The notes under the pieces are model-generated. The model had not been told where the DNA came from. It searched no databases and saw only the letters and a program-made list of their open reading frames with translations. Below, piece by piece: positions 34,063 to 43,648 of a stretch of DNA of 45,374 bases (positions within the stretch are counted from its first letter, which is position 1; each line of letters opens with the position of its first letter). A program made the translations under genes and the position numbers. The DNA is from Candidatus Thorarchaeota archaeon (lineage in GTDB: Archaea > Asgardarchaeota > Thorarchaeia > Thorarchaeales > Thorarchaeaceae). The stretch is from positions 1 through 45,374 of the forward strand of contig JBHLRS010000024.1 of NCBI GenBank assembly GCA_048882325.1, written 5' to 3'.

Positions 34063-34578
34063 TTGAAGATCAATGGTTTAATTCATTTGCTTCACATTCT
34101 CCAGAATGACGTAGAACCTTTGCCTGAACCCTTCAGGACCATTTTCTTTTACTTGGTGTTGTTTGGAGGAGTGATCATCCCGATATGTGCATGTTTATTC
34201 GGGTGGGCCCGTAGAAACGCTGCAAAAAGACGTGTCGAGGAACTAGGTGTTTCTTGGAAGGAAATGGATGCAAAACTACCTAAAACTGAAGATGCCCTGA
34301 TTGACAACCTATTCTGCATTGTTGTTGTGATTCTCGTCATCTTTGTAGGGATTGTTGTTGTCCTAATGCAGATATTAGGGCCGTTTGTCAGGGATATAGC
34401 TGTAGTAGTCCTAGTTGCTTTTGCAATTCTGTTCATTGTGGCATGCTGCCCCATTGCCATGATTTGGGGAGTTAGGGTTGATGAGCGTAGAAACAGCGAG
34501 CGGATTAGAATGGCAGAAGAATATGAGAGATTGAAAGAAACAGGTGGAACAGTGAGCGAAGACCCCTTCAAAGACTAG
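34063..34578 (+). CDS. Small membrane protein (about 3 TM helices), unknown function
   Basis: Three hydrophobic segments. GAGGGAG upstream of the TTG start. Confidence 0.65.
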   Translation: MKINGLIHLLHILQNDVEPLPEPFRTIFFYLVLFGGVIIPICACLFGWARRNAAKRRVEELGVSWKEMDAKLPKTEDALIDNLFCIVVVILVIFVGIVVVLMQILGPFVRDIAVVVLVAFAILFIVACCPIAMIWGVRVDERRNSERIRMAEEYERLKETGGTVSEDPFKD

Positions 34579-34662
34579 ACTAACTGAATGCTCGAACCAT
34601 CTTGATTTCACATCCTCGCTGAACATCAACTATATTAGGATTTATTCCAAAACAGATGAATA

Positions 34663-34752
34663 ATGAAAATCTTGACTGAAAATGCAGTTGCCACTTCAAT
34701 ATACATGACAGTATACTGTCAGTATAGTGGCGTCTATTATAGCTATCATTAG
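34663..34752 (+). CDS. Putative Tyr-rich leader peptide MKILTENAVATSIYMTVYCQYSGVYYSYH
   Basis: ATG 34663 to TAG 34750-34752. Six Tyr in the last 16 sense codons, including a YY pair. TATATTA at 34631. Lies 132 nt before the first gene of a tyrosine biosynthesis operon. Confidence 0.6.
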   Translation: MKILTENAVATSIYMTVYCQYSGVYYSYH

Positions 34753-34847
34753 CTGATAGACTGCTAGTCAAGATCCTGCAACTCGCAGATTCTTATTTTG
34801 GTGGTTCTATGGCTCTAAAACGAAATCTAGTGGATGGGAGGTCTCCC
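34669..34847 (+). promoter_or_regulatory. Attenuator-like structured leader RNA
   Basis: ATCTTGACT/AGTCAAGAT, GCCAC/GTGGC around the palindrome TGACAGTATACTGTCA, GTCTAT/ATAGAC, then CTGC-AACTC-GCAG followed by TTCTTATTTT, and GGGAG-GT-CTCCC. Confidence 0.55.
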
Positions 34848-34884
34848 GACAAATGGACAAATCATTCAGTGGAGGGAAGAGATA

Positions 34885-36273
34885 ATGACTGAATTAAGTA
34901 TCCTTCGGGCCGAGATTCAGAAAGTCACCCTGGAAATCATAGATTTGATTGGAAAACGCAATGAACTAGCAAGAGAAGTTGCAAAGGAAAAAACCCGGAC
35001 GGGAGCACCATTAGTAAATAGGGAGATTGAACAAAATCTCCGAAATTTGGTCCTTGAGAAAAGCCATGATTCATTGATTGATCCAAAGTTCGCAATGCGA
35101 TTGCTCAATCAACTAATCATAGAGTCCATTCGAACTCAAAAGAGCCACATTAAATCACCAATCATCCCAAACGCATACACAACACTCTTGAAAGCACGAA
35201 GACTCGAACAGAGTGGTAGAGATATCATTCACCTAGAGGTTGGTGAACCTGATTTTGGGCCTCCAGCTCAAGTTGCTAGATCGCTTGATGAAGCTGTAAG
35301 AGCCGGAAGAACATGCTACACAGACTCTGCAGGAATTGAGGGGCTCAGGATTAAGATTGCAGAACACTTGAACTTGAAGAGTGGAACTGCACTATCTGCT
35401 GAAAATGTAGTCGTATCTGTTGGAGGTCGATTGGCACTCACTCTAAGTATTGCCACAAATCTGATTCCTGGTGATGAGGTAATAATCATTGACCCATCGT
35501 ATCCTGCATATTCAGAAATCGTGAAACAGTCTGGTGGCAGACCAGTCCATATAACAACAAGACTCGAGGAGAACTGGAATCCAGACATTGGAGAGCTTGA
35601 AAGCAGTATCAACAAGTCAACAAGGATGATGATACTGAACAATCCATGTAACCCAATAGGAAAGAGTCTATCCAAATCGGTCTTCGAGGATATTGTAGAG
35701 CTGGCAGTCGGAAACGACCTCACTATCGTAAGTGATGAGGTCTATTCAAATTACACCTTCTCTTCAAGAACCAGTATCTTGGAATTTCCACATAGTAAGC
35801 ATGTCTACATAGATTCGTTCTCCAAGACTTATGGAATGACTGGTTTCAGACTAGGATTCGCTGTTTCAGATGTAGATACAATTCAACGGATTACGAAACT
35901 GCAGAATCTCTTCTTGACTTGCGTTCCAGAGTTCATCCAATATGCAGGTATCAGCGCGATCGATAGCACTGAGGATGCAAAACGATTTGCAGAGTTAATT
36001 GAGAAACGAATGAAGGTTATGTGTAATGAACTGGAAAATGCGCCATTGTCATTCTATAGGCCTGATGGCGGGTTCTATATTTTCCCTAGACTTGATAATG
36101 ATTCTCTGACTGGGATTGAGTTCTCTGATAGACTTCTCTCTGAGATGGGAGTTGCTGTAGTACCGGGTGATGCATATGGATCAGAATTCTCTCGTTTCTT
36201 CAGGATTTCAATTTGTCAATCTGAAGAAGACCTCATTGCAGGGGCAAAGATGATCAAGGAGGTGCTGAGGTGA
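34885..36273 (+). CDS. Chorismate mutase (AroQ) fused to a class I/II PLP aminotransferase
   Basis: N-terminal LRAEI...LIGKR..LA..VAKEK...N.EIE (AroQ-like). GEPDF, NNPCNPIG, SDEVY, SFSKTYGMTGFRLG. ATG 34885 follows GGAGGGA. The ORF track starts it at 34834. Confidence 0.85.
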   Translation: MTELSILRAEIQKVTLEIIDLIGKRNELAREVAKEKTRTGAPLVNREIEQNLRNLVLEKSHDSLIDPKFAMRLLNQLIIESIRTQKSHIKSPIIPNAYTTLLKARRLEQSGRDIIHLEVGEPDFGPPAQVARSLDEAVRAGRTCYTDSAGIEGLRIKIAEHLNLKSGTALSAENVVVSVGGRLALTLSIATNLIPGDEVIIIDPSYPAYSEIVKQSGGRPVHITTRLEENWNPDIGELESSINKSTRMMILNNPCNPIGKSLSKSVFEDIVELAVGNDLTIVSDEVYSNYTFSSRTSILEFPHSKHVYIDSFSKTYGMTGFRLGFAVSDVDTIQRITKLQNLFLTCVPEFIQYAGISAIDSTEDAKRFAELIEKRMKVMCNELENAPLSFYRPDGGFYIFPRLDNDSLTGIEFSDRLLSEMGVAVVPGDAYGSEFSRFFRISICQSEEDLIAGAKMIKEVLR

Positions 36274-42547: not shown

Positions 42548-43648
42548 ATGACATTTTCATTTGGAAAGGAGTTTAGAATTCATGTCTATGGTGAAAGTCA
42601 TGGTGAAGGTATTGGGGTTGTTGTTGAAGGAGTACCGCCAGGACTCAATATGGATGAGGAGATGATTCAACAAGAATTAGACAAACGTCGTCCCGGAGGT
42701 AGCGAAATTACCTCATCAAGATCTGAGCAAGACCAGGTTTCGATTCATAGTGGGATGTTCAATGGGAAATCAACTGGTGCACCAATCACCTTGTCTATTT
42801 CCAATAAGGATGTTGACTCTTCTTCATATGAGGTAATCCGTCACACGCCTCGACCCGGACATGCGGATTATACTGCAAGAGTGAAATTTGAAGGGTATAA
42901 TGATTACCGGGGCGGTGGTACTTTTTCGGGAAGAATGACCGCTGCTTTTGTGATGGCTGGTGCCTTAGCAAAGTCAATCCTCAAAGAACATGGAGTGATG
43001 GTTCTCGCACATGTTGTTCAGATTGGACAAGTCAGTATTAATGAGGAGGTTTCTGACTACGAAATCAGTAAGAACGTCTATGAAAATCCAGTTAGATGTG
43101 CTCATGCAGATATTGTTTCTGAGATGACGAATGAAATTGCAGAAGCCAAAGCTGATGGCGACTCAGTTGGCGGAATAGTTGAATGTAGAGTTTTAGGTGT
43201 AGAACCAGGGATTGGGGAACCCCTCTTTGATTCTGTTGAGAGTGTCATCAGCCATGCCATGTTCAGTATCCCTGGAGTCAAGGGAGTAGAATTCGGTTCT
43301 GGATTTGCTGGTTCATTGAGAAGGGGTTCAGAGAATAATGATTCACTAATCCTCAGAGAAGGTAAAATTGACTGGGCAAAGAATGATTCAGGAGGAATTC
43401 TTGGAGGAATCACGAATGGAGCCCCCATTGTTTTCCATGTTGCATTAAAACCGACCCCAAGCATTTCGAGGGCACAACGCACTATCGACCTTGAGAAGAT
43501 GGAGGAAACGTCAATACAGACAAAGGGGCGCCATGACCCATCAATCGTGCCAAGAGCTGTCCCAGTTGTCGAAGGACTTGCTGCTGTTGTACTAGTGGAC
43601 CTATTGATGAGAGCTAGCTCGTTACGACTTGCTAGATCTGAAGATTAA
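42548..43648 (+). CDS. aroC: Chorismate synthase
   Basis: GESHG, RRPG, RPGHAD, RGGG..SGR.TA, DGDSVGG, KGVEFG, GGILGGI, KPTPSI, GRHDP. ATG 42548 follows GGAGGAG. Confidence 0.96.
   Translation: MTFSFGKEFRIHVYGESHGEGIGVVVEGVPPGLNMDEEMIQQELDKRRPGGSEITSSRSEQDQVSIHSGMFNGKSTGAPITLSISNKDVDSSSYEVIRHTPRPGHADYTARVKFEGYNDYRGGGTFSGRMTAAFVMAGALAKSILKEHGVMVLAHVVQIGQVSINEEVSDYEISKNVYENPVRCAHADIVSEMTNEIAEAKADGDSVGGIVECRVLGVEPGIGEPLFDSVESVISHAMFSIPGVKGVEFGSGFAGSLRRGSENNDSLILREGKIDWAKNDSGGILGGITNGAPIVFHVALKPTPSISRAQRTIDLEKMEETSIQTKGRHDPSIVPRAVPVVEGLAAVVLVDLLMRASSLRLARSED

Follow-up and report, generated by a model that had tools for sequence, protein, structure and literature searches.

Leader-peptide attenuation, a bacterial mechanism familiar from textbooks, depends on the coupling of transcription and translation. 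The trpL, pheL, and hisL leaders of Escherichia coli are the classical transcription attenuators of this kind, and the mgtCBR leader of Salmonella carries two upstream ORFs, mgtM and mgtP. Archaeal transcription terminates without the need of a hairpin. No description of leader-peptide attenuation in archaea was found in the literature searched, where the published cases found were bacterial only. In mycobacteria, the leaderless polycysteine short ORFs of the Ms5788A class have been described, in which the position of the ribosome is the signal (Canestrari et al., bioRxiv 10.1101/834739). This leaderless short-ORF attenuator is the closest described system to the leader presented here.

The leader was identified in a window of 45,374 nucleotides (the whole stretch of DNA that was analysed) from a Thorarchaeota archaeon, whose genome is a 3.6-Mb archaeal MAG with an estimated completeness of 93%. 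It precedes an operon of nine genes headed by a chorismate mutase-aminotransferase fusion gene, which is followed by the genes for prephenate dehydrogenase, AroB, DAHP synthase, AroD, AroE, AroK, AroA, and AroC, the last gene ending at position 43648. Based on the Pfam assignments, tyrA and all of the shikimate path are encoded in the operon, while the gene of the Phe-branch enzyme is on another contig, away from the operon. The following features of the leader region, all on the plus strand, are used throughout the text.

34631..34638, plus strand: archaeal TATA box, invariant in nine of ten close copies.
34663..34752, plus strand: ORF1, a leader frame of 29 codons with six Tyr codons, open in all 25 copies.
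34669..34774, plus strand: three-way-junction RNA, defined from the fold z-score, the consensus fold, covariation, and the covariance models R1 and R2.
34669-76 with 34767-74, plus strand: P1, the closing helix of the three-way junction.
34684-88 with 34760-64, plus strand: P1b, a helix of the three-way junction.
34690-34731, plus strand: P2 hairpin, a helix of the three-way junction that is in two parts in the consensus fold.
34733-34759, plus strand: P3 hairpin, a helix of the three-way junction.
34776..34788, plus strand: P4, a small hairpin, defined from the alignment and from single-sequence folds of all copies.
34789..34804, plus strand: U/C-rich tract (34790-99), conserved in all copies, and the Shine-Dalgarno (SD) sequence of ORF2 (34800-04).
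34809..34892, plus strand: ORF2, a putative relay frame of 27 codons, whose stop codon (34890-92) overlaps the start of the enzyme gene at 34885.
34885..36273, plus strand: chorismate mutase-aminotransferase fusion gene (Pfam CM_2 and Aminotran_1_2), with its SD at 34871-76.

Like the Ms5788A class, the Thorarchaeota leader has a short ORF that is predicted to stand right at the 5' end of a polycistronic mRNA and in which codons for the amino acid that the genes downstream produce are clustered. A predicted RNA duplex involves the ribosome site of the next gene, and the position of the ribosome would again be the signal. The leader differs from the class in its archaeal (Asgard) host and in the amino acid, which is tyrosine. 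In addition, the putative sensor ORF1 is embedded in a conserved three-way junction, which closes over the start region of the ORF as well, a relay frame, ORF2, appears to couple to the enzyme start, and, in the genus of the window, the helix masking the ribosome-binding site is weak, while a hairpin and a U run are present.

With trpL, pheL, and hisL, the leader shares a leader ORF rich in cognate codons upstream of a biosynthetic operon, an RNA segment that can pair with either of two partners but not with both, and a hairpin with a U run after it, ahead of the first gene. Unlike these leaders, it matches no Rfam leader family, its start is predicted to be leaderless, and nothing competes with the variable hairpin, P4, itself. 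In the classical leaders, the antiterminator links two segments that are both downstream of the ribosome, whereas the strands of the antiterminator-like P1 lie on either side of it. The presence of two short ORFs in one leader, one of them with the sensor codons, recalls mgtCBR and other relay or coupled upstream ORFs, and, as in mgtCBR, the translation of the downstream ORF would depend on the state of the RNA. On the other hand, there is no sequence relation to mgtCBR, the signals are different, and ORF2 ends on the start codon of a structural gene.

The first T of the TATA box is 32 nt away from the ORF1 start codon, both in the window and in the only other-genus copy that was measured, and by eye the box is at a similar distance in the remaining copies. 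No SD sequence is found ahead of ORF1. Since the TATA box stands at the usual spacing of archaeal promoters, the transcript is predicted to start at the ORF1 start codon or 1–3 nt before it, which would make ORF1 leaderless or nearly so. A scan for sigma-70 promoters and terminators was uninformative, the host being archaeal. The upstream neighbour (34063-34578) encodes a predicted membrane protein of 171 amino acids with no Pfam family above threshold, and the spacer from this gene to the TATA box shows no conservation between species.

The preliminary description had placed its RNA stems over a tyrosine leader ORF, and this frame proves to be genuine. ORF1 has a length of 29–32 codons across the 25 copies and is open in every one of them. 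In the 16 copies in which codons were counted, the ORF1 frame has 4–6 Tyr codons and no stops, as compared to 0–2 Tyr codons and 1–7 stops in the other frames. Five of the six Tyr codons are conserved within the genus, and four lie within the last nine codons. The start is also preserved in one of two forms: 13 copies have ATG at codon 1 and never ATG at codon 5, while the other 12 combine GTG at codon 1 with ATG at codon 5. Tyrosine makes up 20.7% of ORF1, compared to 3.5% of the long ORFs genome-wide (binomial P ~4e-4), and the excess also holds against the local base composition (P = 3.5e-3). ORF1 thus shows the enrichment in codons for the operon's own amino acid that is expected of a classical attenuator leader. 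The indel between genera ahead of the Tyr cluster is exactly 3 nt, i.e., one codon, and in the most distant copies the Tyr cluster persists despite a poorly formed P3. The ORF1 peptide shows no conservation beyond a short motif around a Ser-Gly pair, which also forms the base of P2. RNA structure alone explains part of the Tyr-codon conservation, because most of the conserved Tyr codons are paired. Judged from these sequence patterns, ORF1 looks translated. A genome-wide scan for further amino-acid-rich mini-ORFs was too noisy to be used.

The 25 copies of the leader come from 22 of the 87 genomes of the class (six of 17 genera, all within one family) and from three metagenome contigs. The search was carried out with two covariance models: R1, a model of the junction, found six diverged copies in three other genera, and R2, built on all 16 copies, raised the tally to 22 of the 87 genomes. 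R1 and R2 matches occur only upstream of the tyrosine-type operon, and all 25 copies are directly upstream of the chorismate mutase-aminotransferase fusion gene, which ties the element to the tyrosine operon. R2 gave no match in 125 genomes of 26 other families of the phylum. In the genus of the window, the leader (7 of 28 genomes) and the fusion gene (7 of 25) are carried by the same seven genomes. The leader DNA is 78–82% identical in the six other genomes of the genus, while the adjacent fusion protein is only 51–64% identical.

In the alignment, conservation starts at the TATA box (34631-38), lapses in the spacer, and resumes two bases before the ORF1 start. It holds through the junction, lapses in P4, and resumes in the U-rich tract, the ORF2 SD, and the ORF2 start. 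The flanks, the spacer between TATA box and start codon, and P4 cannot be aligned. The leader is a single copy in the genome of the window, and reading it as a repeat or mobile element was rejected for this reason. ORF1 was also considered as a RiPP precursor, and this was rejected since no maturase gene was found nearby in the ORF list and the Pfam assignments covering ~2.6 kb upstream and the nine operon genes.

The stems listed in the preliminary description are real and conserved. Its outer 9-bp stem (34669-77 with 34766-74) is present and 100% complementary, and the stems 34684-88/34760-64 and 34690-94/34727-31 and the hairpin 34732-61 are all found in the minimum free energy (MFE) fold as well as in the consensus fold of ten homologs. 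The 16-nt palindrome enclosed by 34690-94/34727-31 (34706-21) is likewise present, and so is the small hairpin at 34776-88 followed by the U-rich run at 34790-99. Two checks proposed with these stems, folding against dinucleotide shuffles and covariation across homologs, both came out in favour of the structure. The 136 nt from 34665 to 34800 fold at −47.7 kcal/mol, far better than 200 dinucleotide shuffles (−26.6 ± 3.7 kcal/mol; z = −5.69), none of which was as good, and the MFE fold of this segment is the three-way junction plus the small hairpin. The longer stretch 34660-34900 still has a fold z-score of −3.9.

The consensus fold of the ten homologs has 39 pairs in P1, P1b, the two parts of P2, and P3. 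P1 and P2 covary. In the 16 aligned copies, 94.5% of the cells are paired, compared to 24–41% when the partners are slid, although this alignment leans toward the structure because it was fitted to the covariance model. It contains seven doubly changed pairs, three of them in P1, and its covariation score was reached by no shuffle, the covariation being drawn from few related lineages. Within the genus, the stem sequences are near-invariant and the variation is almost confined to loops, bulges, and junctions. Between genera, the variable positions are the unpaired junction and loop nucleotides, and P3 is weak or poorly formed in distant copies. P4 differs in sequence and length in every species, but a hairpin is kept in every copy, as seen in the alignment and in single-sequence folds. 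An Rfam search gave no leader, T-box, or riboswitch family at E values up to 10, with four chance-level matches only.

A second small ORF, missed in the preliminary description, connects the leader to the enzyme gene. ORF2 is open in all 25 copies with a length of 25–52 codons and little sequence conservation, and its frame is preserved through large indels. It is preceded by a good SD sequence (34800-04). The stop codon of ORF2 is always −11 to +2 nt from the enzyme start, that is, from 11 nt inside the gene to 2 nt before it. In about half of the copies the enzyme gene starts with TTG or GTG, and the ORF2 stop always overlaps or abuts this start, which suggests that translation of the enzyme may depend on reinitiation. 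In the folds, the enzyme SD is often predicted to be base-paired inside ORF2. ORF2 thus looks translated, and its arrangement with the enzyme start fits translational coupling, as far as can be read from the sequences. A direct repeat (34826-34842 and 34865-34879) places a copy of the SD-like purine block of the enzyme inside ORF2. The short purine-block motif is similar to the P2 3' arm, and several other genera likewise have it within ORF2.

The preliminary description had suggested that the position of the ribosome could switch the exposure of a U-rich archaeal terminator or of the ribosome-binding site. The general idea stands in part: the 3' arm of P1 (34766-74) has two exclusive partners, one of which is the U-rich tract and ribosome-binding site. 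Since one strand with two mutually exclusive partners is present, the ribosome position could plausibly set the state of the RNA. The alternative pairs originally put forward are, however, not conserved. The pairing of the U-tract with 34815-28 occurs in the fold of the window sequence itself but is absent across homologs. The stem 34836-40/34843-47 is present here, inside ORF2, but is intact in only about half of the copies of the genus, and the pairing of 34843-47 with the enzyme SD is not conserved.

The alternative that is conserved is instead the pairing of the P1 3' arm with the tract just 3' of P4 (34770-73 with 34791-94 in the window). By this pairing, P4 would be lengthened to a hairpin whose end directly precedes the U run at 34796-99. 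The extended hairpin is the local MFE structure in all nine of the same-genus copies folded, with a U-rich tail directly after it in seven of them. This U-rich run is UUUU, or UUCU in two copies. In most copies of the genus, the predicted extended P4 ending at the U-rich run is terminator-like in shape. In some of the other genera, the P1 3' arm is also complementary to the ORF2 ribosome site. In every genus, the U/C tract is similar to the P1 5' arm and varies with it. Cognate pairs of arm and tract have a mean energy of −9.8 kcal/mol compared to −7.6 kcal/mol for cross-genus pairs, with 28 of 5040 permutations as good. A different test, in which duplex energies between the ORF2 initiation region and the upstream RNA were compared to those of shuffled initiation regions, was non-significant (z ~0), and the cross-genus covariation test was therefore relied on instead.

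The strength of the alternative helix varies between genera. In the other genera, it ranges from −8 to −19 kcal/mol, comparable with P1 and P1b together (−10 to −20 kcal/mol), and it would be a real bistable element there. In the genus of the window, the alternative helix is weak (about −4 kcal/mol versus −12 to −19 kcal/mol for P1 and P1b), and there the junction may just prevail. The possibility of a conserved antiterminator that pairs with P4 itself was rejected, since no two species share the P4 sequence, whereas the RNA upstream of it does not vary. With no conserved competitor for P4, there is no textbook pair of terminator and antiterminator. The distance between P4 and the U run also varies from 0 to 8 nt among the copies, reaching 7–8 nt in several genera, and in the other genera the U-rich tract is either inside the stem or 7–8 nt away. 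The lack of a competitor and the variable distance together argue against a textbook intrinsic terminator.

Taken together, the leader is probably a ribosome-read tyrosine sensor, i.e., a leader-peptide attenuator of the Thorarchaeota tyrosine/shikimate operon. According to this model, transcription would start at or just before the ORF1 start codon, and a ribosome would load on the 5' end while the downstream P1 arm is still to be made and translate ORF1, whose last third is Tyr-rich. The 3' strand of the junction, and the P1 3' arm in particular, could then pair either with the P1 5' arm (ORF1 codons 3–5), closing the junction, or with the U/C-rich tract and ORF2 ribosome site, forming an extended hairpin capped by P4. 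The position of the ribosome on ORF1, stalled at the Tyr codons or run through to the stop beside this strand, would pick the winning partner, and this choice would decide whether ORF2 is reached and translated. The translation of ORF2 would in turn be relayed to the enzyme gene by way of the overlapping stop and start codons. The output may be masking of the ribosome-binding site, termination at the U run, or both.

For the polarity of this switch, the following scheme seems the most sensible. In the on state, a stalled ribosome would leave P1 and P1b intact and the ORF2 site free, whereas in the off state a ribosome at the stop codon would melt P1 and P1b, and the freed strand would be captured by the nearby tract. 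Folding with ribosome footprints, a check proposed in the preliminary description, gave results in line with one another. The exposure of the site changes with the blocked positions, and the ORF2 site is more open with the junction formed or with a ribosome on the stop codon. Masking the 5' half or the Tyr tract lowers the predicted accessibility of the ORF2 SD in most copies, which speaks for a switch. A footprint on the Tyr codons thus tends to hide the ORF2 site, and the operon would go off in starvation, which is the wrong equilibrium polarity for a biosynthetic operon. A sensible polarity, in which the stall turns the operon on, would need a kinetic argument against the equilibrium folds. 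An arrest-peptide reading of ORF1 would likewise reconcile the polarity.

In this arrest-peptide reading, ORF1 would be of the TnaC or SpeFL kind, where the nascent chain and free tyrosine stall the ribosome near the stop codon and high tyrosine turns the operon off. Its polarity fits the thermodynamic folds, in which a ribosome at the end of the Tyr tract lowers the accessibility of the ORF2 site. The Ser-Gly motif, with a Tyr two residues later, is conserved across genera, and in most lineages ORF1 ends exactly six codons after the Gly of the motif. These conserved residues, however, coincide with conserved paired nucleotides in P2 and P3, and for this reason selection on the peptide and selection on the RNA are inseparable. 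The rest of the peptide varies freely, with four different residues at codon 2, and the number and placement of the Tyr residues vary (2 to 5) as they do in starvation sensors. We therefore regard an arrest peptide as unlikely. The same low probability is given to a riboregulator of the riboswitch or T-box type, where the junction would bind a ligand, a tRNA, or a protein and ORF1 would be an untranslated by-product. That such an element senses tyrosine, a pathway intermediate, or tRNA-Tyr directly seems similarly improbable. The very stable folding of the junction is in line with a riboregulator, and its stems, near-invariant within the genus even though compensatory changes are allowed, are typical of aptamer cores. 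Moreover, the junction starts just 6 nt downstream of the ORF1 start codon, so that initiation would be impeded after folding. Yet the element has no Rfam match at E values up to 10, and no conserved binding core independent of translation, as in riboswitches and T-boxes, was found: the unpaired nucleotides, which an aptamer would conserve, are the very positions that vary between genera. The Tyr codons are concentrated in a single frame, which is also the one free of stops, and these frame-specific signals of coding argue for translation. The start codon is compensated in all 25 copies, and distant copies retain the Tyr codons of P3 although the helix itself has decayed.

A further possibility, and one we consider even less likely, is a gene for a small stable RNA of ~135 nt, consisting of the junction, P4, and the U run, that would end at ~34799 and perhaps act in trans. 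Reading of the operon from read-through or from another start, as this would entail, is given the same very low weight. The dedicated TATA box, the compact stable fold, and the hairpin followed by a U run are what such a gene would have, and bacteria provide a precedent in attenuator-derived RNAs with trans functions (PMC7968998). However, the element always adjoins the operon, from which a fixed short distance separates it, ORF2 spans the gap up to the enzyme start, the element is a single copy in the genome, and the alignments show no conserved promoter-like block between the U run and the enzyme gene.

Leaders for other amino acids were also looked for. No Phe leader was found ahead of the prephenate dehydratase gene. 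Neither trpE (PF00425) nor hisG (PF01634) was found in the 93%-complete genome, so Trp and His leaders were unavailable for comparison in the genome of the window. Among the 86 genomes of the family, trpE is present in only five. Auxotrophy for Trp and His therefore seems to be common among Thorarchaeota, about a quarter of which retain the Tyr/shikimate operon. In four other genera of the family, the region upstream of trpE has a conserved TATA box followed by an SD-led small ORF of 16–20 codons with a conserved Arg-Arg-Asp...Trp motif and a single invariant Trp codon. This ORF and the repeated small hairpins that accompany it stand ~60–110 nt before trpE. The small ORF is a candidate for a Trp leader in the same archaeal family. 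Other observations in the window include a threonyl-tRNA synthetase in the neighbourhood, which carries an archaea-specific editing domain, and the absence of tRNA genes from the window.

We lean slightly towards regarding the tyrosine leader as ribosome-mediated amino-acid sensing by a leader peptide in Asgard archaea with an architecture of its own, in which the leaderless ORF1 lies inside the junction, the closing helix formed around the stalled ribosome acts as the on lock, and ORF2 serves as the relay; it would then be the first leader-peptide attenuator family described in Archaea. The leader marks those Thorarchaeota that make their own tyrosine, as leader and operon are found in only about a quarter of the genomes searched. 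If the proposed reading is true, archaeal ribosomes would be used as metabolite sensors, in a lineage that belongs to the close relatives of eukaryotes. The leader would also open leaderless initiation, translational coupling, and premature termination to concrete study in Asgard archaea that are uncultured, and it would supply a compact natural part of ~230 nt for tyrosine-responsive control in archaeal genetics.
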